Below are positions 18,331 to 48,492 of a stretch of DNA of 60,723 nt, in pieces; within the stretch, counting starts at the first letter, position 1, and each line of letters starts with the position of its first letter. Made by a program: the position numbers and the translations under genes. The notes beneath the pieces were generated by a model that was not told where the DNA came from, made no database searches, and worked only from the letters and a program-made list of their open reading frames with translations. Where the stretch lies: IMG/VR virus record IMGVR_UViG_3300042868_002569, positions 1 through 60,723 of that record; one strand, 5' to 3'. Source of the DNA: a virus (taxonomy: Duplodnaviria; Caudoviricetes).

Positions 18331-18336
18331 GATAGT

Positions 18337-18631: not shown

Positions 18632-18663
18632 GTGTATAGAATCACTACACAAAAGCCGAAACC

Positions 18664-21025: not shown

Positions 21026-22155
21026 CTGCAATTATTGAATGGCTTGGTAGTGGATTAATTAAAATTCTTGATATGTTCAAGAACCCTGAGTTGATTAAAC
21101 CTGAACCACAAATAATAGAAGTAGAAGAAACTCTTGACAAACGGTTAACAATTGATGGTGTAGAAAAGGGCGAGTTCCCAAAGACACTTAGTCAGTTACT
21201 TGATAACTTGGACGCTACGTTTGATGCATACAAAACGCCTAGTTTTAATAGTTGGATTACTACCGATGAACGGATTGGGTTGAAGAAGTTAGGTGCACAC
21301 GTACCAAACCCTTGGTTGTTTAATACTTACAAGCATGGTGATTTAAAAGTATCAAGCACTGAAAAGATGCCTAGCTTAATGATGATTTCTTTGGATGCTA
21401 GAGAGTCACATGGCACTAAGAGTATCTCACCCAGCTTCATGTATGCAGTTAAACAAAAGACGCACCCTTGGTTTGTGCAGAAAAAGAAGGGCACTGTGTA
21501 TAAAGTAGGCGCAGCTTATTTTTTAAACAAGCTGTATTGGGCGTGTGCTTGGCTTGTTGTAAAAGAAGACGGCACAGTTGAGTTATGCAAGGAACACAGA
21601 GCCGACCCAATTGTAATAAAGAAAGGTAGACATAAAGGTTACTCATATAACAAAAAAGTTTATGACATGCCCGACATATGTCATGATTGGGACGACGGCG
21701 AACACGTCCTAAAAGAAATATTTTTAAACCTGTTTGAGTGGTGGATTAAACGTGATGAGCGTTGGAACGTAACAGTTAAGAAGAACGGCGACAGAGTTAC
21801 TTTTTGTGTAAACAAAGAGCTTACTAAGAAATACTTTGCCGACAGAGATAAGTCAGTAAAGACAAGCACAGGACAAACTAAACGCATCATTCACTTTGTG
21901 AAAGAGCACGAACGAAACTACGGAGACAAAATACGCACGGTGAAAGAACACATCAGAGGTTTAAATAAATTTAGTTGGAAAGGTTATCAGTGTATTGTGT
22001 CAGCACCTGAATTTGGGATGCATTTATCATCTGTAATGTTTGATTTAACCCCTGACGTGGAGCTTAATGATGGGGAAATAAGAGAAGGTTACGTATCAAT
22101 AAGTAAAGTTGGGTTGATGCTTGCCCAAGATGAAGAGCGAAGAGCAGAAAGATAA
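21022..22155 (+). CDS. Hypothetical protein
   Basis: ~377 aa; C-terminal HFVKEHER...VKEHIRG basic motif. Confidence 0.7.
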   Translation: MTAIIEWLGSGLIKILDMFKNPELIKPEPQIIEVEETLDKRLTIDGVEKGEFPKTLSQLLDNLDATFDAYKTPSFNSWITTDERIGLKKLGAHVPNPWLFNTYKHGDLKVSSTEKMPSLMMISLDARESHGTKSISPSFMYAVKQKTHPWFVQKKKGTVYKVGAAYFLNKLYWACAWLVVKEDGTVELCKEHRADPIVIKKGRHKGYSYNKKVYDMPDICHDWDDGEHVLKEIFLNLFEWWIKRDERWNVTVKKNGDRVTFCVNKELTKKYFADRDKSVKTSTGQTKRIIHFVKEHERNYGDKIRTVKEHIRGLNKFSWKGYQCIVSAPEFGMHLSSVMFDLTPDVELNDGEIREGYVSISKVGLMLAQDEERRAER

Positions 22156-22157
22156 CA

Positions 22158-22337
22158 ATGGAAAAAGTAGATTACAGCCCTTCCTACCTAGAAGCAAAGA
22201 AGTGTTTAGAGCTAGCGCATGATGCGTTAACAGTGGGTAAGTTTCAAATTGCCTATGACCATTGCTTAAATGCACAGGTTGAGATGCGGTTGATGAGCAC
22301 AGCGGTTAAATCTTGGATGCCTAGGAAGGATGATTGA
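22158..22337 (+). CDS. Small hypothetical protein (59 aa, not in ORF track)
   Basis: MEKVDYSPSYLEAKK...KSWMPRKDD fills the gap and overlaps the next start. Confidence 0.55.
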   Translation: MEKVDYSPSYLEAKKCLELAHDALTVGKFQIAYDHCLNAQVEMRLMSTAVKSWMPRKDD

Positions 22338-23011
22338 TGAGCAATTTAAAATGGTCTTACTCTTCGTTGGGTTTATTCCAACAATGCCCACGTAAGTATT
22401 ATCACTTGCGTGTGGTCAAGGACATCAAAGAACCTGAGACAACGGCGATTCTATACGGCAAAGAAGTGCACCTTGCTTTAGAAGAATACATCCGTGACGG
22501 TAAACCCATACCTGCTCAGTTCAAAGAGTTCACTGATATAGCAGATATGTTAAAGGCAATGCCAGGGGATAAGTTATGCGAATACAAGATGGGACTAACA
22601 AAAGATATACAAGCGTGTGGTTTTTTCGACGAGAACGTATGGTTCAGAGGAGTCGCCGACTTGCTCATCATCAACGGGGATACAGCACGGGTTATTGACT
22701 ACAAGACTGGTAAGTCATCTGAGTTTGCCGACAAGAAACAACTTGAGTTAATGGCGTTGGCGTTGTTCAAACACTTCCCAAAGGTACGCACAGTTAAAGC
22801 AGGGCTTATCTTTTTGGTTGCCAACGACTTCATAAAAGCCAACTTTGAGAAGAAAGACGCACCGATTACATGGCTTAAATGGATTCAAGAAACAGACCGA
22901 CTAGAAGAAGCACACGAAGTTAATGTTTGGAACCCTAAACCAAACTTTACCTGCCGTAAGTATTGTTTGGTAAAAGATTGTGAACATAACGGAAAAGGAC
23001 ATTACAGATGA
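22334..23011 (+). CDS. Cas4/RecB-like PD-(D/E)XK exonuclease
   Basis: WSYSSL..FQQCP, G..VH, RGVAD...IDYKTG, QLELMA, C-terminal CxxC..C. Confidence 0.9.
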   Translation: MMSNLKWSYSSLGLFQQCPRKYYHLRVVKDIKEPETTAILYGKEVHLALEEYIRDGKPIPAQFKEFTDIADMLKAMPGDKLCEYKMGLTKDIQACGFFDENVWFRGVADLLIINGDTARVIDYKTGKSSEFADKKQLELMALALFKHFPKVRTVKAGLIFLVANDFIKANFEKKDAPITWLKWIQETDRLEEAHEVNVWNPKPNFTCRKYCLVKDCEHNGKGHYR

Positions 23012-23226
23012 CATGGGATTTGAAATGTAACGTATCCACAATAATTGTGGATGTTGAAGGGTTCATCGGGTACTTACATACACCCGAACTTAATTACCCT
23101 GACATGTCTGCAACTATAAAAATGTTTAGTTCAATAGACCCTGAGATACAAAAGATTATGTGTGTCGTAGGTGGTGAACCTGATGTTCAATATATTAGAC
23201 ACAAAGATGGGTGGGTAGCAGTATGA
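23008..23226 (+). CDS. Hypothetical protein
   Basis: 72 aa, overlaps both neighbours. Confidence 0.55.
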   Translation: MTWDLKCNVSTIIVDVEGFIGYLHTPELNYPDMSATIKMFSSIDPEIQKIMCVVGGEPDVQYIRHKDGWVAV

Positions 23227-23411
23227 ATGAAGAAGAGTTGAGAGATTGCTTTGCTATGTTTGCAATGATGGGTATCGTAATGAAGCATGGCACAGAGCGG
23301 GAGTTACTAGAAGACGATGCTTATCTAATGGCTGACCGAATGTTACAAGCACGTAAACCAAAAGACGAAGCGGGTATTGCCTCAGTTAAACGAACAAGGA
23401 AAACAAAATGA
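23223..23411 (+). CDS. Small phage protein (LRDCFAMFAM...AYLMADRMLQAR)
   Basis: RDxFAxxAM...AYxxADxMLxxR motif that I recognise from small phage proteins. Confidence 0.65.
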   Translation: MNEEELRDCFAMFAMMGIVMKHGTERELLEDDAYLMADRMLQARKPKDEAGIASVKRTRKTK

Positions 23412-23599
23412 ACGAAGAAATTAAAGACGACAAGGCTTGGATTGCTAAGCTAAGAAACTTTTTGATTGTGCTAATGGTTGGATTTGCCATCGGCAGCATA
23501 ACAACTAACGCTACCTTCACTTACCACTTGCAACAGGACTGTGATACGTTGAAGCAGTTCCGTATTGGGAAGTTAGCTTATACCTGCATGGTGAGATGA
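23408..23599 (+). CDS. Small membrane protein
   Basis: One hydrophobic segment FLIVLMVGFAIGSI. Confidence 0.6.
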   Translation: MNEEIKDDKAWIAKLRNFLIVLMVGFAIGSITTNATFTYHLQQDCDTLKQFRIGKLAYTCMVR

Positions 23600-24234
23600 T
23601 GACATTTTTAGTAGCCAACATTCCACCAGTTAAATGCTTTGTGCGTAAGGAATTTTTATACAACCACGAATCAGGTCATGGTGAATTAGAGCCGTGCGTG
23701 TGGATGACCGCCAAGGCAATCAAGGGACAAGCGTTTCGTATCGAATCAATGCTAACTAACTACGGGGCACTGTACGATAAGTTACCTATCAGTGCTTACG
23801 TATGGAAAGAAGTAACTGACCCGCTACCACTAGATTTTTTACAGATATGGGATTGCCTGTCTTACGACATGGCTGTGATTGAGAAGTCTAACTTGCGTGG
23901 GCTTAAGGTTAAATACTTTGGCAAGGATAAACAGTTTCATTTTGGTAACTACTTGTTCACGATTGACTTCGCCAGTCCTGATACTAATCGTTTAGATACT
24001 AGCTTTAGTGAAGGGGTCGAGGAGCATAAGTCGTACAACTTTATCAAGCTAGATAACGGTCAATTTGCCTGCCAACCAAACAACAGATGCCTATGGTATG
24101 ACGTATCCTTGGTGCCTGCCGTACTCAAGACACCTGACTTTAAGATACCAACCAAAGTGTATAGCGTAGAGAACCACGCCAAATGGACTGCAAAAGATGA
24201 GTGGTTTTATAACTTTGAAGAGTTAAACAAATGA
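23596..24234 (+). CDS. Phage hypothetical protein
   Basis: 212 aa; ANIPP...GALYDKLPISA...QIWDC...GQFACQPNNR. Confidence 0.75.
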   Translation: MMTFLVANIPPVKCFVRKEFLYNHESGHGELEPCVWMTAKAIKGQAFRIESMLTNYGALYDKLPISAYVWKEVTDPLPLDFLQIWDCLSYDMAVIEKSNLRGLKVKYFGKDKQFHFGNYLFTIDFASPDTNRLDTSFSEGVEEHKSYNFIKLDNGQFACQPNNRCLWYDVSLVPAVLKTPDFKIPTKVYSVENHAKWTAKDEWFYNFEELNK

Positions 24235-24410
24235 AACTTAAGAAACCAAACGCTGTCCAATTACTTGATTACGACGGCATGAATCAACAAGAAGTTGCAG
24301 ATGCGCTAGGTATTAGTAGAGCCTCAGTGCAACACATTGAACGTCGTGCTTATAAAAAGTTTAAGCGTGAGTTAGCTAAAAGAATAAAGCACATTACCGA
24401 TTTATTATGA
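24231..24410 (+). CDS. Stand-alone sigma-70 region 4-like HTH protein (59 aa, not in ORF track)
   Basis: MKLKKPNAVQLLDYDGMNQQEVADALGISRASVQHIERRAYKKFKRELAKRIKHITDLL; ATGA overlap with upstream gene. Confidence 0.75.
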   Translation: MKLKKPNAVQLLDYDGMNQQEVADALGISRASVQHIERRAYKKFKRELAKRIKHITDLL

Positions 24411-24437
24411 CACCGCAAGAACAACAGAGAGAAGAAC

Positions 24438-24605
24438 GTGAACAACGAAAACGAAAAAACAAAGAACAAAACGATTAGCCGAGAGCAGATTATTTTATGG
24501 TCATACGAAGCGGGGTTCCCGACAAACTATGCACGTAACGAGATAGCACGCTTTGAAACATTTGCACGCCTTGTGCAGAAACACTTAGAAAGGGATTACA
24601 AATGA
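24438..24605 (+). CDS. Possible small protein (55 aa, GTG start)
   Basis: Open frame ...SREQIILWSYEAGF...FARLVQKHLERDYK ending in an ATGA overlap with the next gene. Confidence 0.4.
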   Translation: MNNENEKTKNKTISREQIILWSYEAGFPTNYARNEIARFETFARLVQKHLERDYK

Positions 24606-25384
24606 GCATTGAAACAGTAAACATCAACAAAGAAAAACCAAGCCTGATGATTGCAACACCTATGTATGGTGGTATGTGTACAGGTAACTTTATGGTTGGT
24701 GTATTACAGACTATAAACAAGATGCAGTCTATCGGGGTGCAAGTCTACTTCGTACAGATGGGCAACGAGTCTTTAATTACCCGTGCTCGTAACGAACTAA
24801 CACGTATCTTCTTAGAGAAAAACTTTGATTACTTGATGTTTATTGATGCTGACATTGGCTTTGATGGGCAAGCAGTTGCTCAGTTGATGGCGGCGGATAA
24901 AGATATTGCTTGTGGTATTTACCCCAAAAAAGAAGTTGATTGGGTTGCAGTTGAGAAGGCTGTGGCATTAGGCAAAACTACAGGATTAAAAGATTACTCA
25001 GGCGCTTTTGTGTTGAACTTCGCACATGAGCTAGGTCAAGAGCTACATACAGACCCGTCAGGTTGTATTGAGGTACGTCACGGTGGTACAGGCTTCATGC
25101 TAATTAAGCGTAAAGTGTTTGATGATTTAGCCGACAAGGTTCCTACATACAGACCAAGCACAGTTAAAGATGCTAGCGGTAACTACCTCAAGCCCGAAGT
25201 AAAAGAATACTTTGCTACAAGTATTGACGAAAGCGGTTGCTTGTTATCTGAAGACTACCATTTCTGTGAGTTGTTCCGTAAGAACGGCGGTAAGATATAC
25301 GCCAACCCATTCATTAAATTAGACCACGTAGGTACGTATGTGTATGGTGGTGACATCATCAAAGCGGGTGGTAATCTTAAATGA
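24602..25384 (+). CDS. GT-A fold glycosyltransferase-like protein
   Basis: IATPMYGG, ESLITRARN, DxD motif FIDADI, GTGFMLIKR, SEDYHFC, DHVG. Confidence 0.7.
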   Translation: MSIETVNINKEKPSLMIATPMYGGMCTGNFMVGVLQTINKMQSIGVQVYFVQMGNESLITRARNELTRIFLEKNFDYLMFIDADIGFDGQAVAQLMAADKDIACGIYPKKEVDWVAVEKAVALGKTTGLKDYSGAFVLNFAHELGQELHTDPSGCIEVRHGGTGFMLIKRKVFDDLADKVPTYRPSTVKDASGNYLKPEVKEYFATSIDESGCLLSEDYHFCELFRKNGGKIYANPFIKLDHVGTYVYGGDIIKAGGNLK

Positions 25385-25890
25385 TTAAAGTTTATGATGG
25401 CTTAGTAAGTCCTGATTACATTGAGCGTATTAACTCGTTTATCCAAGGTTCTTATTTTAAAATTGGTAATCAAGATGGCGATATGTTAGGTACGGCGACA
25501 CATCAATATGTATATTCTGAGTATTCAGAAAACGACCTAAAGCTTAGCGGGTTTGTTGATGCCATACAAGGGACTGAAGTTGGTGACTTATATAACCGTA
25601 GCAAATGGGTTAGGACTGTAGCCAATTTATCAACACCATCAGATTCTAATTTTTTACACACGCATTTTGGGTGCAAAGTAATTTTGTATTACGTTAATAA
25701 TCTTTGGGAAACAAATTGGGGTGGTGAAACAGTTTTTTACAACAATGCAAAGACTGAAGTAATAAAGTCTGTAAATTTAGTTCCGGGGAGAATAGCTGTG
25801 TTTGACGGCAACATACTGCACTCCATTCGCCCACAACAATCCATAGCACCGCATTATCGGTTCACTATGGGTATATCTGTCAAGGAATAA
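25381..25890 (+). CDS. 2OG-Fe(II) oxygenase (prolyl-hydroxylase-like)
   Basis: HTH metal site (HxH rather than HxD), ILYYVN..W...WGGET.F, GRIAVFDG..LHS, terminal R. Confidence 0.75.
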   Translation: MIKVYDGLVSPDYIERINSFIQGSYFKIGNQDGDMLGTATHQYVYSEYSENDLKLSGFVDAIQGTEVGDLYNRSKWVRTVANLSTPSDSNFLHTHFGCKVILYYVNNLWETNWGGETVFYNNAKTEVIKSVNLVPGRIAVFDGNILHSIRPQQSIAPHYRFTMGISVKE

Positions 25891-25892
25891 AT

Positions 25893-26645
25893 ATGTTTTG
25901 GAATAAACCAAAAATAACTTTTGATTGCCTAGTTCCAGGGGTTGAGCGCATCATGCCTATGATTCCCGCAAAAGAATTAAAGCACCCTTGGGTACATAGA
26001 GCACAACAAGAACTTTCTGCGATGCGTAAAAGCTCTGCATGGGGTAAAGAAAAATTAGTACACACTGCTAAATGCCCCGGAATTTTTAATTTACAAAGGC
26101 ACGGTTGGGTAATGCGCACTTGGCAAGACATCACTATTGAAACATACGGCGATGGAAAAACGTTTAACTGGACTACGCCTATTGACCAAAAAAAATTGAG
26201 CTCAATTGCTAATGACTACATAGGCTCACATCCCGAAATACAACTAGCTAACTTCATGGAGCATTGGAGACCCGATACGTTACGTACGTTGATAAAAGTA
26301 CAATCACCTTGGCGTTGCACAGTGCCTAAAGGCTATCACTTATTGGAAATGCCGATTCCATACCTAGATGAAGATAGGTTTACTACGGTTCAAGGGTTCT
26401 TTAGCAGAGAGCAAGGGATAGCGCAGATGAATCCACAGCTTTTGTGGCATGTACCTATTGGTAAAACTTTGATTAAAGCAGGGACGCCCATAGCTCAATA
26501 CATACTTGTGCCTAAAGATAATTTTGATATGAGCATGAAGGTTGAAGGCACAACTAATGAGCACGAGTTCTTTGAATTAGCAAACAGCTTTAGGTTCGTA
26601 AAAAGTTATGGCGAAGTTAAACGGTTATTTGGAGAAACAAAATGA
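25893..26645 (+). CDS. Phage protein of unknown function (KCPG...SPW...PKGY...IKAGTPIAQ)
   Basis: 250 aa in the modification cluster. Confidence 0.65.
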   Translation: MFWNKPKITFDCLVPGVERIMPMIPAKELKHPWVHRAQQELSAMRKSSAWGKEKLVHTAKCPGIFNLQRHGWVMRTWQDITIETYGDGKTFNWTTPIDQKKLSSIANDYIGSHPEIQLANFMEHWRPDTLRTLIKVQSPWRCTVPKGYHLLEMPIPYLDEDRFTTVQGFFSREQGIAQMNPQLLWHVPIGKTLIKAGTPIAQYILVPKDNFDMSMKVEGTTNEHEFFELANSFRFVKSYGEVKRLFGETK

Positions 26646-27352
26646 GCCTACCTGAAATACATTTAGCAACAGACGGAGACCTGAACTATGCTCTATTTAA
26701 GCATAACGATATTGTTAGCAATGGCGTGCGTAATGGTGGTTACGAAAAAGAACTTCAAGAATTATCAACGAAACTTTTGGCTGGGTACACTGATGGTATC
26801 GTTCTTGATATCGGTGCTAATTTGGGGAGTTATGTTGTACCACTCGCAAAGCAACACCCTCAACTACAATTTGAGGTCTTTGAACCACAGCGTATTGTTT
26901 ACTACCAACTATGTGCCAACATATTCTTAAACCGATTAAGTAATGTGTACGCACATAACGTAGGACTGAGTAACGAACAGCGCATAACCAACTACGTGTT
27001 GCCAAACTATGCGGAAGAAACAAACATCGGTGCGTTCAGTATTGATTTCGATACTCGCCTTAAGGACTATGAGGTTAAGTCTGAAGGTGTTACTGAGCGC
27101 ATGATTATTATTCCGCTTGACTCAATGCAGTATGAGAAGGTTCGGCTAATTAAGATTGACGTAGAGGGGCATGAGCTACAGGTACTTCAGGGTGCAGAAC
27201 ACACTCTCCGTGAGAACAACTACCCACCGATTATCTTTGAGGCATGGACTTGGAAGTTCCCTGAGAAGCGTCAAGCAGTATTGGCTCACTTAGAAAACCT
27301 AGGGTATACCATTACTGAGCTTGGACAAAACAATTTGGCGGTTAAAAAATGA
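26642..27352 (+). CDS. FkbM-family SAM methyltransferase
   Basis: VLDIGANLG, FEPQ, LIKIDVEGHELQVLQGA. Confidence 0.9.
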   Translation: MSLPEIHLATDGDLNYALFKHNDIVSNGVRNGGYEKELQELSTKLLAGYTDGIVLDIGANLGSYVVPLAKQHPQLQFEVFEPQRIVYYQLCANIFLNRLSNVYAHNVGLSNEQRITNYVLPNYAEETNIGAFSIDFDTRLKDYEVKSEGVTERMIIIPLDSMQYEKVRLIKIDVEGHELQVLQGAEHTLRENNYPPIIFEAWTWKFPEKRQAVLAHLENLGYTITELGQNNLAVKK

Positions 27353-27534
27353 CGAAAGACGAAATGGATATGATATTAAGACAAGCTGGTATTGACCCCG
27401 CAGTTGTGCCAAAATATGAGGTATTACCTGACGGAACCGTCTATTTTTACACAAAACAGGAGGATAAAGATGCCCTACGTGAACAAACCCCGCCCGTACA
27501 AGAAAGAATATCAACAGCAAAAGGCTCGAAATGA
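27349..27534 (+). CDS. Possible small protein
   Basis: 61 aa, ATGA overlap upstream but overlaps the HNH gene by 65 bp. Confidence 0.35.
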   Translation: MTKDEMDMILRQAGIDPAVVPKYEVLPDGTVYFYTKQEDKDALREQTPPVQERISTAKGSK

Positions 27535-27781
27535 ACAGCCTTCACGGAACGCCAGAGAACGTGCAAGGTACGCCGTTGACAAAGATGGGGTCGACGCCAA
27601 CAACAATGGAAAGGCAGACCGACGTGAGGGTAAAGACATCGACCACGTCATCCCACTATCCAAAGGCGGAACTAATTCTAAATCAAATCTTAAAGTACGA
27701 GCATCAAAGAGCAACCGTTCGTTCTCAAGGAACTCAGACCATACAGTCAAAGTTAACAGGCCTAAAAAATCTGCCAAGTGA
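27470..27781 (+). CDS. HNH endonuclease-like protein
   Basis: Start MPYVNKPRPYKKEY (RBS GGAGG); DIDHVIPLSKGGTN...NL...N. Confidence 0.8.
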   Translation: MPYVNKPRPYKKEYQQQKARNEQPSRNARERARYAVDKDGVDANNNGKADRREGKDIDHVIPLSKGGTNSKSNLKVRASKSNRSFSRNSDHTVKVNRPKKSAK

Positions 27782-27787
27782 GGCAGT

Positions 27788-29341
27788 ATGAAAATATTAA
27801 ATAATAACCAATTACTTATAACAACAAGGCGCCCACAATTAATAACTGAGTGCATACCAAAAAGCAAAATTATTGATTCTAATGGTGACTTGTACATGGT
27901 CGCCGTTCATTGGGGCTTAGACGAAGCTCAAACCTTGGCTAAACTTAAAGTCAAGAAGGTACCATCCCCAATCATGCGTGACTATAAGTGGCCTGGTGTT
28001 TTCCCACCAATGGCACACCAAAAAGATACTGCGGCATTCTTAACTCTTAATCAACGTGCATTCTGTTTTAACGAACAAGGTACAGGTAAGACGGCGTCTG
28101 CTATATGGGCGGCTGATTACTTGTTAAACATAGGTAAGATAAAGCGAGTGCTTATCATATGCCCGCTATCTATCATGCAATCAGCATGGCAGGCAGACTT
28201 GTTTAAGTTTGCAGTGCACCGCCGTGTAGGTGTGGCATACGGAGAGAAGCGCAAGCGCCAAGCGGTTATAGGTAACGATGCCGATTTTATTATTATTAAC
28301 TACGACGGTATTGAGATTGTTGCCGAGGACATAGCCCGTAATAAGTTTGACTTGATTATTATTGACGAAGCCAATGCTTACAAAACTCCTACAACAAAGC
28401 GCTGGAAAACACTTAACAGACTAATTACTCCAAACACTTGGGTATGGATGATGACAGGTACACCTGCGGCACAGAGCCCTACAGATGCTTACGGCTTGGC
28501 TAAGATGTGCGTGCCTGAGAAAGTAGACCGTTTCTTTGGTTCTTTCCGTGACCGAGTCATGGTTAATGTAAGTAAGTTTCGCTGGTTGCCAAGACCAAAC
28601 GCAGACCAAATAGTATTTGAATCTTTACAACCCGCCATTCGCTTTACTAAAGAAGAATGCTTAGACCTACCGGAGATAACCCATGTGTTTCGGGACGCCC
28701 CCCTTACTGCGCAACAGGAGAAATACTACAAAGTCCTCAAGAAAGATATGCTCATGGTGGCAGGAGGTGAAGAGATTAGTACTGTTAACGCCGCAACTAA
28801 TCTTAATAAACTGCTTCAAATTTCTGGTGGCGCTGTGTATTCTGATAACGGCAGCGTTATTGAGTTTGATGTTTCTAATCGCTTACGTGTTATCCAAGAA
28901 GTAATAGAAGAAGCAAGCCATAAAGTTCTTGTCTTTGTTCCGTTCACGCATACAATAGAACTACTCAAAGCGCATTTGAGAGGGGCAGGTATTCCCTGTG
29001 AAGTTATCAACGGTGCCGTGCCTGTTCACAAACGTACTGAAATATTTAAAGATTTTCAAGAAACAGAAAATATCAAGGTACTTATAATACAACCCCAGGC
29101 AGCTGCACACGGAGTCACACTAACTGCTGCTAACGTAATCATTTGGTATTCACCAGTAACATCTATTGAGACTTACCTGCAGGCTAACGCCCGTATTGAC
29201 CGTAATGGTCAGAAGAACACAATGACTGTTGTGCACATTAAGGGTAGTCCCGTAGAGACACGGTTATACGGAATGTTGCAAAATAAACTAGATGTACACA
29301 CAAAAATAATTGACCTGTACAATAACGAAATAAATACTTGA
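27788..29341 (+). CDS. SNF2-like superfamily 2 helicase
   Basis: EQGTGKT, IIDEA, MTGTP, HGVTLT, QANARIDRNGQ. Confidence 0.9.
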   Translation: MKILNNNQLLITTRRPQLITECIPKSKIIDSNGDLYMVAVHWGLDEAQTLAKLKVKKVPSPIMRDYKWPGVFPPMAHQKDTAAFLTLNQRAFCFNEQGTGKTASAIWAADYLLNIGKIKRVLIICPLSIMQSAWQADLFKFAVHRRVGVAYGEKRKRQAVIGNDADFIIINYDGIEIVAEDIARNKFDLIIIDEANAYKTPTTKRWKTLNRLITPNTWVWMMTGTPAAQSPTDAYGLAKMCVPEKVDRFFGSFRDRVMVNVSKFRWLPRPNADQIVFESLQPAIRFTKEECLDLPEITHVFRDAPLTAQQEKYYKVLKKDMLMVAGGEEISTVNAATNLNKLLQISGGAVYSDNGSVIEFDVSNRLRVIQEVIEEASHKVLVFVPFTHTIELLKAHLRGAGIPCEVINGAVPVHKRTEIFKDFQETENIKVLIIQPQAAAHGVTLTAANVIIWYSPVTSIETYLQANARIDRNGQKNTMTVVHIKGSPVETRLYGMLQNKLDVHTKIIDLYNNEINT

Positions 29342-29366
29342 CAAGGTCAAGTTCTTGCACTAATAT
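29336..29366 (+). promoter_or_regulatory. Sigma70-type promoter, replication operon 2, with a palindrome over the -35
   Basis: TTGACA (29338-43)-17 bp-TAATAT (29361-66); ACTTGAC-AAG-GTCAAGT at 29336-52. Confidence 0.8.
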
Positions 29367-29399
29367 AAATAAAACACTCACAACCTAAGGAAACCAAAA

Positions 29400-29798
29400 A
29401 TGGCAGATGATATTTCTGTAGATAAACTAGTCTCCGTCTTTATTAAGATACGAGACACACGTGATGAAGAAGAGCGTGCATGGGAAGCCAAGAAAGCTGA
29501 CTACACAGAACAGCTAGAGCTTATCAATCAACAATTACTTGAGATTTGTAAAAGTACTGATGCCGATAGTATTCGTACTGCGCATGGCACAGTAATCCGT
29601 TCGGTTAAATCTCGTTACTGGACTAACGACTGGGAGCATTTCCACAAGTTTATGTTGGAGTGGGAAGCACCTGAGTTATTAGAGAAGCGTATACATCAAA
29701 GCAACATGAAACAGTTTTTAGAAGACAACCCCGGTACACTGCCAGCCGGTTTAAATATGGACAGTGCGTACTCAATCACAGTAAGGAGAAGTAAATGA
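29400..29798 (+). CDS. Replication-module protein (N-terminal coiled coil), function unknown
   Basis: 132 aa; RBS TAAGGA. Confidence 0.7.
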   Translation: MADDISVDKLVSVFIKIRDTRDEEERAWEAKKADYTEQLELINQQLLEICKSTDADSIRTAHGTVIRSVKSRYWTNDWEHFHKFMLEWEAPELLEKRIHQSNMKQFLEDNPGTLPAGLNMDSAYSITVRRSK

Positions 29799-30664
29799 GT
29801 GAATTAGCTTTATTTAAAAATAACCTACCCGACTATTTAAAAGAGGTAGCATTAGACGACGTAACCAAAGCCCTTGCGGGTGGCGGTGGTGGTAGCAAAC
29901 GTATTTCGTTGCGTGGCGGTGTATTCCGCATGGTTATCGGTGGCGAAGAAGTTGCTAAAAACGAAAGCCGTTCAATGAACGTAGTTATTGTTAATGCCGC
30001 CAAAGAAGTATCACGTACATTTTATGCAAAAGCATACAACCCAAGCCAAGATGCAACAGCGCCTGATTGCTGGTCTGCTAACGGTCAAAAACCTGATGCG
30101 TCTATTGAATCGCCTCAAAACCACAACTGCGCCGAATGCCCACAGAACATCAAGGGTTCAGGTCAGGGTGATACACGTGCGTGCCGTTTTTCACGCCGTT
30201 TAGCTTTAGCTTTGGCTGATGATTTGGAAGGCGACATTTTCCAATTAGTATTGCCATCTAAATCTATCTTCGGTAAAGGTGACTTAGACCATATGCCGTT
30301 TGAGCAATATGCCAAGTACGTTGGTTCACAGGGTTACAACCTCAATACACTAATCACTGAAATGAAGTTTGACAGTGACAGTGATAACCCTAAGCTAACT
30401 TTCCGCCCAGTTAACTTCTTATCAAAGGAACAGTGGGAAATTGCAAAACGTCAAGGCGAAACTCTTTCAGCTAAGAACGCTATCACTATGACTGTTTCAC
30501 AAACTGATGGTGTTAAAACTCCTAAGCTCGAAGCCCCTAAAGCTGAAAAGGTAGTTGCTGAAGAAGTAGCTGAGCCTAAGAAGCGTGAGGATAAGAAAAC
30601 GCAGCCTACTGAAAAGAAAGACCTTAAATCAATCATGAGTGGTTGGTCTACTGACGACGAATGA
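29795..30664 (+). CDS. Putative single-stranded DNA-binding protein
   Basis: Beta-rich core with PDCWS..CAECP..C; flexible K/E/P tail ending WSTDDE; located before the primase; function inferred. Confidence 0.55.
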   Translation: MSELALFKNNLPDYLKEVALDDVTKALAGGGGGSKRISLRGGVFRMVIGGEEVAKNESRSMNVVIVNAAKEVSRTFYAKAYNPSQDATAPDCWSANGQKPDASIESPQNHNCAECPQNIKGSGQGDTRACRFSRRLALALADDLEGDIFQLVLPSKSIFGKGDLDHMPFEQYAKYVGSQGYNLNTLITEMKFDSDSDNPKLTFRPVNFLSKEQWEIAKRQGETLSAKNAITMTVSQTDGVKTPKLEAPKAEKVVAEEVAEPKKREDKKTQPTEKKDLKSIMSGWSTDDE

Positions 30665-30903
30665 GTTTAAGGGGCTATAGCTTTCGATTGGTGCGAGCTA
30701 ACCAAGCTGCCAACTCCAAGAAGATTGGGGTGGTGCTTGGGCGGTACTGCATCGCTAAGGATATATCTGTTGCTGAGATTGCAGAAAAGTTTGATGTGTC
30801 TCGAATGACAATATATTCTTGGTTTACAGGCGTTGCGGAACCACATCGCTCGAAAGCCGAACAGATTGCAGCGATGCTAAAGAGAGCTAGGTTTAGCGTT
30901 TAG
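30661..30903 (+). CDS. Cro/CI-like HTH protein
   Basis: ISVAEIAEKFDVSRMTIYSWFTG..EP. Confidence 0.75.
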   Translation: MSLRGYSFRLVRANQAANSKKIGVVLGRYCIAKDISVAEIAEKFDVSRMTIYSWFTGVAEPHRSKAEQIAAMLKRARFSV

Positions 30904-30909
30904 TTTACA

Positions 30910-30964
30910 GGGGTAGCTAGTTTGACGGAACGAACAGGGGATTCGCCGCACCCCGTGCTACCCC
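30910..30964 (+). promoter_or_regulatory. Structured element in the primase leader
   Basis: Outer stem GGGGTAGC/GCTACCCC enclosing inner stem GGGG/CCCC. Confidence 0.5.
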
Positions 30965-30989
30965 ATCTTTATTGCGGACAGAGGCGACA

Positions 30990-33812
30990 ATGGCTACAAC
31001 AGATTTACTAAAAGTAGTGTTACCTCCCGAGGGGGAAGGTGTTTACTGCTTGCTAGGGTTAAAACAAGGGGGTGGCTATCCAAAACAGTTGTGGGCTGAA
31101 ACGCTTGCAGATGCCGAGAAACATATAGCTGACTTGCTAAACGATTTATATGACGTGTATTTTGCGTGTGCTAAATACACTAATGAAGCTGAAGGACGAA
31201 TACAAAAAAATAGTAATTACTTTAAGAGCTTTTGGTTGGACGTTGATTGTGGTGTTGGAAAGCCATACGCAGACCAAGAAGAAGGATTAGCTGCGCTTAA
31301 AGAGTTTTGTATAAAGATAGACTTACCGTTGCCTACAGTAGTTAATTCCGGTCGTGGTGTGCATGCGTATTGGAACTTAACTACTACAATCGACCGTGAG
31401 CATTGGCTTCCTGTAGCAACTCGTATCAAAGCACTGTGTGAAGAACATGGCTTTGAAGCTGACGGTAGTCGCACTGCTGAGAGTGCTTCGGTATTGCGTG
31501 TGCCTGAGACTTGGAACTTTAAGAACGACCCGCCTTTCCCAGTAGAAATCTTAAAGATTGCTAAGGATATTGAGTACGACGAAGTTAAACGTCGACTCGG
31601 GGTGTTAGTTGCACCTAGTTACATCCCACGTAGTTTTAGCGAAGCGTCTCAAGCAATACGCAGTAACATACAAAGCCGCTTTAAAACCATTATGCTTAAG
31701 ACCATAGATGGTAGTGGATGCGCACAGATTAAAAACTTGGTTGAGAACCAAGACAATATGGATGAGCCACGCTGGAGAGCAGTGCTTAGTATTGCAGCAC
31801 ACTGTATTGACAGAGACACAGCTATCCATATGGTTAGTAATGGGCACCCTGATTACAACGCCGAAGCTACAGAAGAAAAGGCTAATGAGATTAAGGGCCC
31901 CTACACTTGCGCAAAGATGGAGTATTACAACCCAGGGTTCTGTGGTGACTGCCCACACAAGGACAAGATTAAGAACCCTATTCAGTTAGGCAATGAAGTA
32001 ATTGCCGCCGAAACAAACGAGATAGTTGAAAAAGAAGAAGATGGCACCACATCTGTATATACAGTACCTGAGTTGCCTTATCCGTACTTTCGAGGTAAGA
32101 ACGGTGGTGTGTACCGTGCAACTACGGAAGAAGATGGCGAGCCATCGTTAATTTATGAACATGACTTGTACGTAGTTAAGCGTTTATTTGACCCACGTAA
32201 AGGCGATGCAATTTGGATTAGGTTGCACTTACCTAGGGATGGCGTACGTGAGTTTTCTATCCCACAAACAGAGGCACTAACTCACGAGAAGTTGCGTGAT
32301 AAGTTAGCTTGGTACGGCGTTGTTGCTGCTAAGAAGCAGATGGACAACATCATGAACTATTTAATAACGTTTGTAAAAGAACTACAACATAAATCAGAGG
32401 TAGAAATAATGAGAACACAATTTGGATGGACAGACGACAACGACCAATTTATTCTAGGAGACCAAGAAATATCTGCGGATAAAGTTTCGTACAGTCCACC
32501 GTCAAGCTCTACAGGTAGCTTAGCTACATTCATGGCTCCAACAGGTGACTTTAAAGAATGGCAACGTATCGCAAACATTTACAACGCTCCTGGGTTTGAG
32601 CCACATGCATTTGGATTTTTTACTGCTTTCGGCGCACCGTTGCTTAAGCACCTCAACCTACGTGGCGCTATTATTAACTTGATTAACAATCGTTCAGGTA
32701 CAGGTAAGTCGACTATTCTTAAGATGTGCAACAGCGTATGGGGGCACCCTGAAGAGTTAATGCTCCAATGGAAAGATACGCAGAACTCTATGATTCACCG
32801 TCTTGGCATAATGAACACGCTTCCTGTGACTATTGACGAGATTACAAAGCTATCAGGCGACCACTTTTCTGATTTGGTATATAGCATATCCCAAGGACGT
32901 GGCAAGAATCGCATGCAACAACATGACAACGCCGAGCGCCTCAACACAACAAAGTGGTCAACCATTGCGCTATGTTCTGCCAACGCTTCTTTCTACGATA
33001 AATTAGCTACGTTAAAAGCTACACCAGACGGCGAGATGATGCGTCTTATTGAATACAAGATTGAGATGACTGACACTCTTTCCAAAGAAGAAGCTGACAC
33101 AATTTTTAACGGCTTGTACACCCACTACGGGCACGCTGGGTTTGAGTACGCTAAGTATCTTGTAGCTAACTTAGAGACAGCAATTGATACAGTTATGCAA
33201 GTTCAGCAGAAGTTAGACCAAGAGGTAGGGTTTACCAGTAGAGAACGCTTTTGGTCAGGCGTAGCTGCATGTAACATTGCAGGTGCTTTGATGGCTAAAG
33301 ACCTAGGCATTATTCCTGACTTCAACGTTGGTCGTGTCTACAAGTGGTTGACACAGATGCTTAAGACTATGCGCACCGACATCAAGGCTCCAGCCAATAA
33401 CAACATAACCTCTGTGTTTGAGTTTATGAACGACCACCGTGCTGAGACTTTGGTTATTAACGGCAACGCAGACCGTCGGTCAGGTATGCAAGAGCTACCT
33501 ATTGCCGAGCCTAAGTTTAGTGATATTAAGGTACGTATAGAACCGGATACAGGTGTGCTTATGTTAAGAGCTAAAGCCTTCCGTGATTTCTGCGCTAAAA
33601 ACCAGATTACTTTGAAAGATTTACTGGATGGATTACACCAAGACAAAATCTTTATCAAGCTAGACAAGAAGCGTATTGGCAAAGGCACCAAGATTCCTTG
33701 TGGTTCAGTCGACGTATATATTTTTAACATGGAGCACGATGATTTCTTTGATACCAAGGAAGCCATAATTGAGGCGGTTAAAGACTCTACAAATGCTGAT
33801 ACACGGAATTGA
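30990..33812 (+). CDS. Primase-helicase (RepB-like primase N-terminus, DUF927-type helicase region)
   Basis: WLDVD, SGRGVHAYW, LRVPETWN, PYTC..CGDCPH, QFGW, SGTGKST, TIDE; start at MATTDLL. Confidence 0.85.
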   Translation: MATTDLLKVVLPPEGEGVYCLLGLKQGGGYPKQLWAETLADAEKHIADLLNDLYDVYFACAKYTNEAEGRIQKNSNYFKSFWLDVDCGVGKPYADQEEGLAALKEFCIKIDLPLPTVVNSGRGVHAYWNLTTTIDREHWLPVATRIKALCEEHGFEADGSRTAESASVLRVPETWNFKNDPPFPVEILKIAKDIEYDEVKRRLGVLVAPSYIPRSFSEASQAIRSNIQSRFKTIMLKTIDGSGCAQIKNLVENQDNMDEPRWRAVLSIAAHCIDRDTAIHMVSNGHPDYNAEATEEKANEIKGPYTCAKMEYYNPGFCGDCPHKDKIKNPIQLGNEVIAAETNEIVEKEEDGTTSVYTVPELPYPYFRGKNGGVYRATTEEDGEPSLIYEHDLYVVKRLFDPRKGDAIWIRLHLPRDGVREFSIPQTEALTHEKLRDKLAWYGVVAAKKQMDNIMNYLITFVKELQHKSEVEIMRTQFGWTDDNDQFILGDQEISADKVSYSPPSSSTGSLATFMAPTGDFKEWQRIANIYNAPGFEPHAFGFFTAFGAPLLKHLNLRGAIINLINNRSGTGKSTILKMCNSVWGHPEELMLQWKDTQNSMIHRLGIMNTLPVTIDEITKLSGDHFSDLVYSISQGRGKNRMQQHDNAERLNTTKWSTIALCSANASFYDKLATLKATPDGEMMRLIEYKIEMTDTLSKEEADTIFNGLYTHYGHAGFEYAKYLVANLETAIDTVMQVQQKLDQEVGFTSRERFWSGVAACNIAGALMAKDLGIIPDFNVGRVYKWLTQMLKTMRTDIKAPANNNITSVFEFMNDHRAETLVINGNADRRSGMQELPIAEPKFSDIKVRIEPDTGVLMLRAKAFRDFCAKNQITLKDLLDGLHQDKIFIKLDKKRIGKGTKIPCGSVDVYIFNMEHDDFFDTKEAIIEAVKDSTNADTRN

Positions 33813-33990
33813 CTTTAAGATAAATTGGCGTAATTTTGTGGTGGGGTCTTCGTTTTTTATACCGTGCTTAGACCACGAACACGCTCGAGAACAGATTCAC
33901 AGGGCTACAAAACGATTGAAATACCCTATTAAAACGCAAATAGTGATAGAAAAAGGCATCTATGGTTTGCGTGTTTGGCGAATTAAGTAG
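33793..33990 (+). CDS. Small protein after the primase
   Basis: INWRNFVVGSSFFIPCLD...GLRVWR. Confidence 0.65.
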   Translation: MLIHGIDFKINWRNFVVGSSFFIPCLDHEHAREQIHRATKRLKYPIKTQIVIEKGIYGLRVWRIK

Positions 33991-34002
33991 TATCATTCAC
34001 CT

Positions 34003-34079
34003 GTAGACGATTGGTTTCGGCTACTTTCCTTAGTGAGTGAGTGATTTAAGCCCCGGCGTAAAACCCCGGGGTCTTTTTT
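34003..34079 (+). ncRNA. Putative antisense sRNA (sRNA2) against replication-operon leaders
   Basis: Possible promoter TTGCGT (33967-72)-18 bp-TATCAT (33991-96); 34012-22 is the reverse complement of 18654-64; 34025-33 and 34037-43 are reverse complements of 29385-93 and 29375-81. Confidence 0.6.
34050..34079 (+). terminator. Rho-independent terminator at the replication/virion convergence
   Basis: CCCCGG-9 nt-CCGGGG followed by TCTTTTTT. Confidence 0.8.
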
Positions 34080-37000
34080 AATCTTGAGAATAGTCCAGCA
34101 TACCTTGTAGTTGCGGCATTAAGTTCTTATTAATGCTAATACCACCGGTAATGTTTGCTAGCGCACGGTCTTGGTAACGTTTGTTTACTGATTTAAATAA
34201 ACTATTTGGGTCAATACCCACCATCGGATTAGTTGCATTAAACGTAACAATCTTCTCAAGCACTCTTTCTAACATATCAGAATCGCCAGTATCTACAGAC
34301 ATAAAGAATGCGTTAAGCAAGTCAGTGCGACGACCTATAATCTTCTCGTTAACGTTCTTCATTTCAATTGAAGCTTTTTGTTTCTGAGCGGTGTCTTCTG
34401 GAGAAAAGCCTAGCATCTGAGCAAGGGCTGAAGCGGCAGGTATATCGGCATCTACTTCGTTACCTTTTAGGGTTACGGCTCTACCTTCAACCATATAGCG
34501 TGTACCAACCATAAGGTTTTTAATTGCCGCAGGCATCATGACTTCTAATGCACGTTCTGTGTGTCCGTCATTAAAACGTTTTAGAGCTTCGCCATAGTTA
34601 ATAGCTGCGCCTGCTGTAGGTCCAAGTAAGTTAATAAACATATTCTGTAAATAAGATACTTCGTCGTTGCTCTTACGCACGTCAGGGAACCACATGTCCG
34701 TTAAGTTGGTGTTCATACGGTCTGCAAAGTTAAGCCCGGTAGCTTGAGATGCAAAACCACGAGATATAGAATCACCGATAAACCCACCAAATGTGCGGTT
34801 AGTCCAGTTTTTAAACCAATTTTCTGGGTCAAATGGCTCGTCGTCATCACCAAACACAGCATGGAATGCAGAAGCTATGCCAGAGAATATAAAGAACAAC
34901 GGCATACCTGTGAAACCAGCGGTTATAAATGTCATACCCATCAGGCCAAGAAACGCATCACGAGCTTCTTTCTTCATTTCATCTAGTTCAGCACGTTTCT
35001 TTTCCATGCTCTTGGCTTTTTCATCGGGGGTAGCGGTGGCTAAACTACGTTCATGACGGGCTAGTTCGGCTTCCATACCTTGTCCAATAGCTTGCTGAAA
35101 CGTGCGGAACATAAACACGCTCATGTGTTGCGGGTATAACTTAAACTGCAATAAAACGTTACGTAAGTCACCACGGAAGTAACGTGGCTTATTAGTACTG
35201 TTGTAGTTAAACATTGTTTTCTGAGTAACATCACGTGCTTCTTGTAAAGCACGCTCATAGGCTTTGTCAGGAGTTAACCCAGCATCCAATGCTTTCCTAT
35301 ACCCCATGTCAAACGTAGACATATAGGCCATCTCACGGTTAAATTTTTCAGCCGAGTGGAAAGGTAAACTGACGTAGTACATAATTTTGTTCCAACGACC
35401 TGTGACTTCGTTAGACGGAGTTTCACCAAGGTTGGCAGCTTCGTGCGATTGCGTAACGTTAATGATGCCTCGAGCCACACCTTCGTTGTATACATCTGCT
35501 AAAGTCTTACCTTGCGGAAGCGCCTTGGAATCGGCATCGGTTCCTACGGTATTACGAGTCTCAAGTTTTGCACGGCTTAATGACAAGAACTCGTAACGCC
35601 CAGTCTCATCACTAACATATTTAGTACCGCCTAACATGCGAGCATACCTAGAAAGAGTCGTAGTTACGTTGCTTACACCACCGTACTTAGCCGCAGCAAC
35701 CGGAGCATAAATACCAGGAATAGCCATTGCGTTTATAAAAGCAGAAGCAGGTGCCGACAAGAACTGTATAAAACCAAAGTTTGTGGCAAATGTAGTAAAG
35801 CCGCTTTGTTTTGGTGGTTCTAAAATAGCTGTGCGTAAGTTAAGTTCTAACTCTTTTACATAGTCACGTAGGCGAGTGCGTTCATCTAACTCTAACCCTG
35901 TTTTAGGGTCTAAATAATCATTGGCTGCTTTAACGATATTAAATAACTGCGGCATGTGCTGAAAACGAGCACGTTGATAAGCCACACGTTGACGTGATAC
36001 AGAGAAGGCACGGAGCATATCTTGGCTAGGACCGGCAATATTGCCACGGTGCATAAACATCTTTTGAATACTCTCAGATGGCATTAGCTCTAAGTATAAC
36101 TGTCCAAACTCATCACGCAGTCTAGCGCGCAATGCTTCAACTTCATTGGCTTTAACTAAGGGGTCAACACTTAAACTAATGTCTTGACTAGTTTTGTCAA
36201 TAAGGTCGTAGATTCTATTAAGGTGTTGAATGTCGGCAAGACGTCCGCTTAGTGATTCACTAAAGCCTTGACCAGCATCTAAATTGTCTTCAGCATCTTT
36301 TAGTGCTTTTTCTTGTGCAACTTCATCAGTATCACCAGCAGCTTTGTATTTACTTACGTAGCTCTTAGCTAACTTATCTTTAAACTTATCTAGCTCAGCA
36401 TCTCTGGCGTAGGCGTCTTCAAACTGCATAAAGATTTTCTTTTGGCCTGTACCAACTTGTAACCAGTATTCACCGAAACGCTTGATTGGGAAGTACGGAC
36501 GGATAATTTCTTTGTTAATCTCATCAGATTTCTCTTTAACTAGCTTCTGTATCTCGGCATCAGGGGTGCCTTTAAGACGCTCACGCTCAGCAACTCTTTC
36601 TAGTTGAATCTTAGTATACTCATTCATACGGCGCTCATAAAACGCACGAACTTGACGATATACCTGCAACGCTACATCGCCATCTTTACCAGTAATCATT
36701 TCTAACCAAGCGGCTTTTAGTTCAGGGTCGGCATTGAACTTAGTGGCATCGTGCCCAGTACCTTGAGAGTCTGGGTCTAAACGCTTAAGCGTAGCCTCAA
36801 TCATTACCTTGCCTAATTGCTCAGCTTTCTGTGGATTAGACTCAAGTAAGTTACTCCACACCTTAATAATAGGGTCGCCTTCAGCCAAGATTTGGTTACG
36901 AGTGTTAAGCATCGCATCCACTTCTTTTACATATAACTTAAACTGCGGCATCTGGTCGCCGACAATATCCGTCAACTGGTCTAACGTCAATGCGCCTAAT

Positions 37001-48039: not shown

Positions 48040-48492
48040 TTACTGTCCTAATCTGTTTGTGGTTGCACGTTTTAGTGTGTTCATCTCAGAGCGTAGTGTA
48101 GAACTTGTTACATCTAACTCAACCTTTTGTGCAGCCATGCCAGAACGTAGTTCTTTCTGTGTGCTTTCTGCAACAATCTTAGCTTCACGGGCTGCCATTA
48201 GCGCTTCGGCTAGGCGTTCTTGCATCTTAGCAATGACTTCACGCTGGTCGGCTACTTTTTCTTCTAGTAGCTTAACCTTACGCTCTGCGGCTGCTGCAGA
48301 GGCAGCTGTGTCGCTGTAGCCCTCATACATCTCTTTGACTTCGTTGAACTTGGTAATGCCTGTGTAGCCAGCACCTAAAATAACAGGTACGCCAGCAATA
48401 ATGAAGCCAGCCACCATCGTGTTCTGTTTGGCCCAAGTTACCCACTTATCTACAAAGCCTTGTACTTTATCTAGTTTCTCTAAATCGCTCAT
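48040..48492 (-). CDS. Membrane-anchored coiled-coil protein
   Basis: One TM segment (VAGFIIAGVPVILGAGY) followed by a long coiled coil. Confidence 0.65.
   Translation of the reverse strand: MSDLEKLDKVQGFVDKWVTWAKQNTMVAGFIIAGVPVILGAGYTGITKFNEVKEMYEGYSDTAASAAAAERKVKLLEEKVADQREVIAKMQERLAEALMAAREAKIVAESTQKELRSGMAAQKVELDVTSSTLRSEMNTLKRATTNRLGQ

Follow-up and report, generated by a model that had tools for sequence, protein, structure and literature searches.

A predicted phage small RNA, encoded where a replication operon ends, and its complementarity to two replication leaders

The locus and its relatives

At the end of a replication operon in an uncultured phage (Duplodnaviria; Caudoviricetes) lies a short segment, positions 33967-34079 on the + strand, that probably encodes a small RNA (sRNA) complementary to the leaders of two replication transcripts of the same phage. 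The window analysed is the whole of IMG/VR virus record IMGVR_UViG_3300042868_002569, which comprises 60,723 bp and is estimated to be 96% complete. This 60.7-kb phage looks lytic; a search of the window gave 0 matches to the tyrosine-integrase family, and no lysogeny or immunity genes were found in it.

The replication module occupies the + strand from 18664 to 33990. Its first gene specifies a VRR-NUC/Hjc-like nuclease (from 18664) and opens the operon of the family-A DNA polymerase (PolA, from 19190); an SNF2 helicase gene begins at 27788. The operon that ends in the sRNA is headed by the gene for a protein of 132 amino acids (aa), from 29400, and contains genes for a 289-aa protein (from 29795), a helix-turn-helix (HTH) protein (30661-30903) and a DUF927 primase-helicase (30972-33812). 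The last small open reading frame (ORF) of the operon, 33805-33990, specifies about 61 aa when read from the ATG at 33805 (it is listed from a TTG at 33769), and its product, which ends in GLRVWRIK before the stop codon, is kept in relatives at 46-69% identity in tblastn searches. A 2137-aa gene on the - strand, with its stop codon at 34078-80, converges on the operon, and the sRNA region is the 88-nucleotide (nt) gap between this gene and the small ORF.

Relatives were collected by protein scans with the primase and PolA, which gave 171 loci from IMG/VR, JGI metagenomes and one metagenome-assembled genome (MAG), with primase identities from 97% down to about 33%. For 82 of these loci the end of the small ORF plus at least 60 nt beyond it was available, and these were scorable for the element. 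The nearest cultured phages are distant, at no more than 35% amino-acid identity (31% for the primase of Pseudomonas phage Rollin, 35% for PolA of Rhizobium phage RHph_TM3_14A), and a nucleotide search of GenBank phages with the window returned no match. In Rollin the genes overlap and leave no intergenic space at the corresponding place; no cultured carrier of the element was found.

Anatomy of the element

The segment 33967-34079 comprises, in order, a promoter, a 5' stem-loop, a CU-rich single strand and an intrinsic terminator. The -35 hexamer, TTGCGT (33967-33972), falls on Leu-Arg codons of the last small ORF, and the -10 hexamer, TATCAT (33991-33996), stands directly after the stop codon TAG (33988-90) of that ORF, with an 18-nt spacer between the two. 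From these promoter signals, transcription is predicted to start at about G34003, the seventh base after the -10 hexamer and the base of the first stem, and to end within the U-run, giving a primary RNA of about 77 nt (34003-34079) whose limits agree with the fold, the architecture and a covariance-model match at 34001-34078.

The 5' stem-loop (34003-34024; GUAG.CG / CG.CUAC, loop AUUGGUUU) is defined by fold and covariation, and its loop together with the 3' half of its stem (34012-22) is complementary to the start region of the VRR-NUC gene. The free CU-rich strand (34025-34046), recognized by pairing and by co-variation with targets, contains UUUCCUUAG, which is complementary to a Shine-Dalgarno (SD) sequence, and GUGAGUG, both of which pair with the 132-aa leader, as well as AGUGAUU, which pairs with the VRR-NUC leader. 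The intrinsic terminator (34051-34079) is formed by a G+C stem of 6-7 bp with a 9-nt loop, then UCUUUUUU; in the DNA it is seen as the hairpin CCCCGG/CCGGGG (34051-56 / 34066-71) followed by TCTTTTTT. It is bidirectional and serves the convergent 2137-aa gene as well. A simple terminator scanner missed this hairpin because its loop limit is 8.

Other identities for the segment were considered. No tRNA or tmRNA is present in the window, and no Rfam family reaches its gathering threshold anywhere in it. The best + strand matches were RF02837 (anti-hemB, Burkholderia RNA 7) at 33997-34079, with 21.0 bits against a gathering threshold of 49.5, and RF01719 (Pseudomon-1/ErsA) over 33967-34087, with 21.1 bits against 50; membership in either family was rejected, since the scores are sub-threshold and the alignments are carried by the terminator hairpin and U-run. 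The reverse complement resembles a leader with an SD sequence, and a leader on the opposite strand was also rejected: by eye, it has no conserved ORF or start codon, an ATG being found only in the L008/L009/L011 group of loci, where it opens a 7-codon or spurious ORF, and not in the window, L003 or L012.

Conservation and structural covariation

An element of the same build is present in 62 of the 82 scorable loci, in 45 distinct sequences; five loci have a terminator only, and in the remaining 15 there is nothing, the small ORF abutting the convergent gene. The shared plan consists of a TAnnnT hexamer after the stop codon, a variable stretch that is 6 nt long in close relatives, a stem-loop, the CU-rich strand, a G+C hairpin and a T-run. 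A consensus fold computed from 20 distinct sequences has two helices and a free middle strand. Compensatory changes are found in 10 of its 14 pairs, and 95.4% of the cells of the alignment that should be paired are paired, as against 83.6% in shuffles and 33-50% in slid registers; none of 500 shuffles reached the covariation score. Both helices contribute, the 5' stem with six pairs (five with compensatory changes, 94.2% of cells paired) and the terminator helix with eight (five with compensatory changes, 96.3%). The G+C hairpin, U-run and covarying helix thus provide the intrinsic terminator that is looked for in a trans-encoded sRNA.

A covariance model built from the 20 sequences finds one copy in the window and, at E<=0.1, 13 hits in 1.13 Mb of other loci, all of them on the + strand. 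Twelve start between -5 and +16 nt from the stop codon of the small ORF, and the thirteenth, from a lineage with no small ORF, lies 19 nt past the primase gene; nine of the 13 come from distant lineages outside the 20 sequences of the model. At L157 (9998-10078), which has no small ORF, the primase stop codon leads directly into a TACTAT hexamer, then a CU-rich strand and a terminator, an arrangement indicating that the element is tied to the operon end and not to the small ORF.

A probable promoter of its own

The sequence-only reading of the window had offered two origins for the RNA, its own weak promoter or processing from the 3' untranslated region (3'UTR) of the operon, and four kinds of evidence from the relatives support the promoter. 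A TAnnnT hexamer begins at +1 after the stop codon in 34 of the 45 distinct intergenic sequences; in the other 11 a TATACT-type hexamer occurs further downstream or the promoter is unclear. The Leu codon on which the -35 hexamer falls is TTG in 30 of the 31 distinct element bearers that have Leu there and in only 2 of 15 non-bearers, which mostly use CTA, CTG or CTT, although the GLRVW motif is common to both groups; judged from codon choice, this bias is best taken as a synonymous-site signal of the -35. Divergent clades have full promoters: L066/L086 carry TTGCAC-16-TATACT, wholly intergenic, and L058/L059 carry TTGACA-18-TATACT, with the -35 inside a C-terminal extension of the small ORF. 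Finally, the spacing to the stem is kept, in that the stretch between the -10 and the first stem varies in sequence and is 6 nt long in most close relatives. Computational evidence therefore gives the element the promoter of its own that is expected of a trans-encoded sRNA. The six bases concerned (33997-34002 in the window) and their equivalents in relatives are often G-rich (CGGGGG, AAGGCC, AGAGGC).

Complementarity within the window

All of the complementarities on which the sequence-only reading was built were recovered when recomputed. The reverse complement of positions 34012-34022, TGGTTTCGGCT, occurs without mismatch at 18654-18664, a stretch that takes in the A of the VRR-NUC ATG at 18664, and 34040-46 is complementary to 18640-46 in the same leader. 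In the second leader, 34025-33 is complementary to 29385-93, the SD sequence of the 132-aa gene, and 34037-43 to 29375-81, with three unpaired bases on each side (29382-84 and 34034-36) between the two helices. Given one bulged G, 34022-32 can also pair with 29782-93. The only other 11-nt exact complement in the window, to 34017-27, is at 48248-48258 (- strand RNA). Counted from the sigma-70-type promoters that precede them, the two leaders are predicted to be only 26 nt (VRR-NUC) and 27 nt (132-aa) long, and the paired segments fill most of both.

A scan of duplex energies over the genome (12,136 windows; mean -17.2, standard deviation 4.0) indicated that raw duplex energy over 47 nt is not discriminating, and a ranking restricted to translation initiation regions (TIRs), together with comparative tests, was used for that reason. 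Among the regions from -35 to +15 of 83 greedily called genes, the VRR-NUC TIR ranks first (-27.9 kcal/mol, 11-bp helix), the 132-aa TIR third by energy and second by helix, and the 289-aa TIR fourth by energy. When the RNA was shuffled 1000 times with its dinucleotides preserved, one shuffle reached the energy of the 132-aa pairing, three that of VRR-NUC and none both. Taken alone, the window makes a moderate case, and its matches are no more than suggestive; it is their location, combined with conservation and covariation in relatives, that sets the observation above chance.

Co-variation with the leader of the 132-aa gene

The TIR of the 132-aa gene (29373-29402, +) is a predicted 27-nt leader with SD sequence and start codon, behind the promoter TTGACA-17-TAATAT (29338-29366), and is paired at 29375-81 and 29385-93. 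Own RNA-TIR pairs were compared with cross pairs among 37 lineage clusters at 80% identity, using 50,000 permutations. Duplex energy averages -21.9 kcal/mol for own and -16.4 for cross pairs, and the longest Watson-Crick helix 8.8 as against 6.2 bp; 0 of 50,000 permutations reach the own value in either measure, counts that, like those for the VRR-NUC leader below, are not true probabilities because the lineages are related. The outcome had been the same in an earlier test on 28 lineages. The helices are located between -15 and +2 of the start codon, and by helix length 17 of the 37 clusters place the RNA's own TIR first, alone or tied. When each RNA is instead compared with up to seven TIRs of its own locus, that of the 132-aa gene wins outright in 21 of 37 clusters; the longest helix averages 8.8 with the 132-aa TIR, 6.9 with the 289-aa TIR, 6.8 with the SNF2 TIR and about 5 with the others.

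Individual loci illustrate how RNA and leader change together. At L153, 13 bp extend from the SD sequence through the GUG start codon of the 132-aa gene, and pairings of 12 bp (L095, L166) and 11 bp (L108, L163, L039, L098) occur elsewhere. Where L058 has an SD sequence of the AAAAUGAGG type, its RNA has UCAUUUUGG instead of the usual UCCUUUC, and GAGAGAGAC in the 132-aa leader of L057 stands opposite GUCUCUCUC in the RNA. The changes in RNA and 132-aa leader are compensatory and gene-specific. Covariation of the intergenic segment with both leaders, which the sequence-only reading had named as a check on itself, is thus found for this leader and, as described below, for the other.

The leaders of the 132-aa genes in relatives (for example L003 at about 3270-3300, L008 and L027) mostly have a covarying 5' hairpin, in forms such as ACAGAC..UCUGU, CGAAC..UUCG and GGAC..UCC; the shorter leader in the window has none.

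The 132-aa protein itself belongs to no Pfam or NCBIfam family and has no match by sequence in the PDB; PHROGs places it in phrog_13900, which is labelled 'minor head protein'. Its AlphaFold model has a confidence (pLDDT) of 89. Searched with Foldseek against the PDB, the model returns nothing at E<=0.001, and against BFVD it has 14 matches at E<=0.001, among them 'Siphovirus Gp157' and 'Host-nuclease inhibitor'. A fold of the Gp157 or host-nuclease-inhibitor kind may be entertained as a lead only, not as an assignment.

The VRR-NUC leader and a weaker third site

The second TIR (18638-18666, +) consists of a predicted 26-nt leader without an SD sequence and the start codon of the VRR-NUC/Hjc-like gene, paired at 18640-46 and 18654-64; its promoter, identified by eye, is TTGATT (18603-08)-17-TATACT (18626-31). 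Eighteen lineages have both parts on one contig. In these, own pairs have a helix of 7.6 and cross pairs one of 5.8, and none of 20,000 permutations attains the own value. Helices of at least 9 bp are found in the window and at L095, L098, L131, L113/L116 and L130. As in the window, the loop of the L095 RNA (UUUGGUUUCGG) pairs over 11 bp with CCGAAACCAAA before the AUG; L098 also has 11 bp, by way of the CU-rich strand, and L131 has 10 bp across the VRR-NUC AUG. At L113/L116 an unusual ACCAAGAGGA occurs in the VRR-NUC and 132-aa leaders alike, and both match one RNA segment, while at L006/L020 the pairing is in two collinear pieces. No match is seen in L011, L108, L109 and L121, in which the VRR-NUC gene lies inside an operon or appears to lack a leader, and the pairing is kept only where the gene is promoter-proximal. 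The pattern indicates that the dual-target reading holds in roughly half of the testable lineages. The conserved seed of the element is thus documented in 37 clusters for the 132-aa leader and in 18 lineages for that of VRR-NUC. At L011 (960-995), the VRR-NUC ATG comes 6 nt after TATACT, so that the mRNA looks leaderless, and the RNA loop differs.

A possible third site is the ribosome-binding site of the 289-aa gene (29782-29793, +), with 6+5 bp around one bulge and rank 4 of 83; it is weak. The label 'SSB-like' that the sequence-only reading had attached to this gene found no support in any family.

Proposed mode of action and its alternatives

Pairing at the SD sequence or start codon is a classical way to block binding of the 30S ribosomal subunit. 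As the pairing extends across the SD sequence and start codon, the RNA is read here as a translational repressor of two promoter-proximal cistrons, and we consider it likely that 33967-34079 is a phage sRNA gene whose product represses translation of replication genes by pairing in trans, with feedback on its own operon. The weak, host-type promoter TTGCGT-18-TATCAT, half buried in the last ORF, would start a transcript of about 77 nt at around G34003, which would end at the bidirectional intrinsic terminator. Its free strand would pair with the stretch from SD sequence to AUG in the 132-aa gene, which opens the RNA's own operon, and its loop together with the 3' half of the 5' stem would pair with the SD-less leader and AUG of VRR-NUC, in the PolA operon. 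With 30S binding occluded, translation of both promoter-proximal cistrons would fall, and expression of the rest of both replication units would probably follow through loss of coupling, decay or polarity. Being encoded in the phage genome, at the tail of one of its own target operons, the RNA should become more abundant as templates multiply and as the operon is expressed more strongly, and replication-gene expression would then come under negative feedback or be shut off in a timed, dosage-dependent manner. What we infer from the arrangement of sequence signals is that the RNA is transcribed, where its 5' end lies, that it represses and does not activate, and that feedback results. The sequence-only reading had spoken of a repressor of replication genes. 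That description stands in so far as both leaders co-vary with the RNA and the 132-aa gene heads the primase operon; it needs qualifying in that the best-supported target is the gene for the 132-aa protein, whose function is unassigned, in that the match to VRR-NUC is kept only where that gene is promoter-proximal, and in that the third site is weak.

A number of observations weigh against this interpretation. Over both strands of the 60.7 kb the RNA has two exact 11-mer matches, four 10-mers and about sixteen 9-mers, which is chance by our own estimate (about 1, 4 and 18, respectively); in the genome duplex-energy scan the two leaders lie outside the top 25 of the 12,136 windows, and 24 non-self windows reach -30 kcal/mol or lower, better than the 132-aa leader. 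Folding of the 77-mer is unexceptional (z = -1.79; 9 of 200 shuffles fold equally well). The -35 hexamer agrees with TTGACA at only three of six positions, and a simple promoter scan of the window did not list the sRNA promoter. Part of the co-variation signal is generic pairing between SD and anti-SD sequences, as seen in the SNF2 and 289-aa helices of 6.8-6.9, and the SNF2 TIR matches equally well at L109, L156, L166 and L125. Helices with the own 132-aa TIR are only 5 bp at L111 and L169, and in three clusters that TIR ranks 17th, 18th and 24th of 37. About half of the 18 lineages lack the VRR-NUC pairing (4-6 bp). Four RNA-type runs (shares 0.05-0.10) contained only Logan contigs of relatives, of about 90% likeness (85-99%), in which neither transcript ends nor levels can be read.

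The same RNA element might act without a promoter of its own, as the processed tail of an operon that begins with a matching cistron. Of 34 distinct sequences, 20 have the six bases just upstream of the predicted start folded onto the CU-rich strand, as though these bases were part of a functional RNA, which hints that a longer, read-through form is of importance too; a 3'UTR form of that kind would mask the anti-SD seed and a promoter-derived form expose it. This folding and the weakness of the -35 speak for processing. It would leave the TAnnnT hexamer, the TTG bias and the full promoters of L058/L059 and L066/L086 without a role, however, and the VRR-NUC leader belongs to another transcription unit, so that at least this pairing must act in trans. 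We therefore hold processing alone to be improbable, and note that the two modes can coexist. It is less probable still that the segment is nothing but a terminator with a protective 3' hairpin, in which a CU-rich strand meets purine-rich SD sequences generically and to no regulatory effect. Such an explanation would sit well with chance-level exact matching in the window, with the many coding windows of lower duplex energy, with the 6-7 bp matches to other strong-SD genes and with the 20 of 82 loci that have a bare terminator or none. Yet the co-variation of own over cross pairs is not confined to the SD core but takes in gene-specific flanking bases and the start codon, the RNA mirrors unusual SD contexts (AAAAUGAGG type at L058, GAGAGAGAC at L057, ACCAAGAGGA in both leaders at L113), and neither the promoter signals nor the VRR-NUC pairing, which uses a loop that is not CU-rich, would be explained.

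Known phage sRNAs often act on host genes: in the account given by a review, PreS acts on dnaN, and VpdS on mRNAs of both host and phage (PMC12197685). An anti-SD seed can reach many mRNAs. The element could accordingly be a real phage sRNA whose main targets are mRNAs of the host or of co-infecting relatives, with the phage leaders secondary or coincidental. A host target would hold the seed constant; the seed instead changes with the phage's own leaders, and we consider this alternative very unlikely.

An extension of the repressor interpretation, which we put forward as a speculation with the odds clearly against it, would make the RNA a dosage-sensing timer and a specificity determinant for this whole freshwater phage clade. 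Made constitutively from every genome copy, the RNA would titrate the leaders of both replication units and close replication-gene translation at high template number, a trans counterpart of the copy-control RNAs of plasmids. Through fast co-evolution with its leaders, the RNA of each lineage would become orthogonal to those of relatives and would also determine which of them, on co-infection or superinfection, it shuts down; this would amount to an RNA-based heteroimmunity like that of P1 and P7. If this were true, the natural variants would be a ready-made library of orthogonal sRNA/leader pairs.

Comparison with known regulatory RNAs

The nearest known parallel is found in the autoregulatory sRNAs derived from 3'UTRs of Vibrio cholerae, OppZ and CarZ, which were described by Hoyos et al. 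2020 and exert negative autoregulation (as reviewed in PMC9438474). In the review's description, OppZ is processed by RNase E, needs Hfq, targets a second cistron and acts through Rho-dependent termination, and CarZ is likewise an Hfq-dependent RNase E product (PMC9438474). The phage RNA resembles them, as so described, in lying at the 3' end of a polycistronic operon, sharing its terminator and pairing with a TIR of its own operon; the 3'-end location and pairing with the operon's own mRNA that define the type are both found here. Unlike OppZ as the review presents it, it is a phage element with a conserved promoter of its own, matches the first cistron and also matches a second operon (VRR-NUC/PolA). 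The promoter signals argue for a primary transcript, and the seed-masking upstream bases would leave room for a read-through form.

Among phage regulators, lambda OOP RNA and P22 sar RNA are cis-antisense RNAs (PMC12197685). The predicted RNA shares with OOP and sar its short length (about 70-80 nt), its origin in a phage genome, production from its own promoter or by processing, and a proposed pairing-based block of phage regulatory genes. In contrast to OOP and sar, which are transcribed opposite their targets, it has targets on its own strand, at distances of 4.6 kb (29373-402) and 15.3 kb (18638-66). The opposite-strand location and full complementarity that characterize cis-antisense RNAs are hence not found, and pairing with distant targets on the same strand would be partial and in trans.

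The c4 RNAs of phages P1 and P7, likewise short phage-encoded RNAs that block regulatory genes by pairing, have loops that pair with a ribosome-binding region in the same operon, and their specificity differs between the two related phages. The antisense RNAs that set plasmid copy number (CopA of R1, RNAI of ColE1/pT181) are countertranscripts fully complementary to the target leader. By analogy with CopA and RNAI, which are unregulated and provide dosage-dependent feedback, the level of the phage RNA may follow template number, and replication functions may be inhibited by pairing at or near a ribosome-binding site; unlike them, it would be trans-encoded, with seeds of 7-13 bp and two targets, and its dosage dependence is a prediction.

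No description of this element was found in a literature search, which did not extend to subscription journals and supplements; Table S1 of PMC12197685, with 38 phage sRNAs lacking a described function, might bear on novelty. Few phage sRNAs have known targets, and those treated in that review, as far as its account goes, are cis-antisense or mainly host-acting (PMC12197685). What appears to be new here is a trans-acting phage RNA that matches the first cistrons of its own and of a second replication operon and of which dozens of natural compensatory variants exist. If confirmed, it would extend to viruses the principle of the autoregulatory 3'-end sRNA, first seen with OppZ and CarZ according to the review cited above (PMC9438474), and would establish RNA-level control of replication-gene expression in a large phage clade that has so far been seen in metagenomes alone; the natural RNA/leader pairs, roughly 37 in number, would form a test set for the rules of seed-target recognition and orthogonality.

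Neighbouring features

Just upstream of the VRR-NUC promoter, at 18302-18534 on the + strand, there is a second non-coding unit of about 198 nt, with a promoter TTGAAT-17-TATACT (18302-30), a CU-rich CTACCTCCTTGG near the 5' end, and a hairpin CCCCCT/AGGGGG followed by a T-run (18500-34). A unit with TATACT and a terminator occurs at the same place in L011 (about 700-900) and in L020. This may be the 'sRNA1' implied by the numbering of the sequence-only reading, in which the element at 33967-34079 was sRNA2.

The primase reading frame of one relative, L007 (2790-5666), contains one in-frame stop codon. L173 is a 16.7-kb contig, binned in a MAG of Ca. Nanopelagicales (actinobacterial), that carries the primase/small ORF/RNA module; its RNA has a 10-bp match to its own 132-aa leader, and its G+C content is 43.4% compared with 43.6% for the window. 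The binning is a weak host hint and could be an artefact; were the host actinobacterial, it would be expected to lack Hfq and to have many leaderless mRNAs.

Palindromes of the form CTTGAC/GTCAAG are found at 29336-29352, over the -35 of the 132-aa promoter, and at 18542-18556, upstream of the VRR-NUC promoter, and the same type of palindrome recurs over the -35 in relatives. They are a candidate operator for the HTH protein encoded at 30661-30903, which would add transcriptional autoregulation to the control proposed for the RNA.

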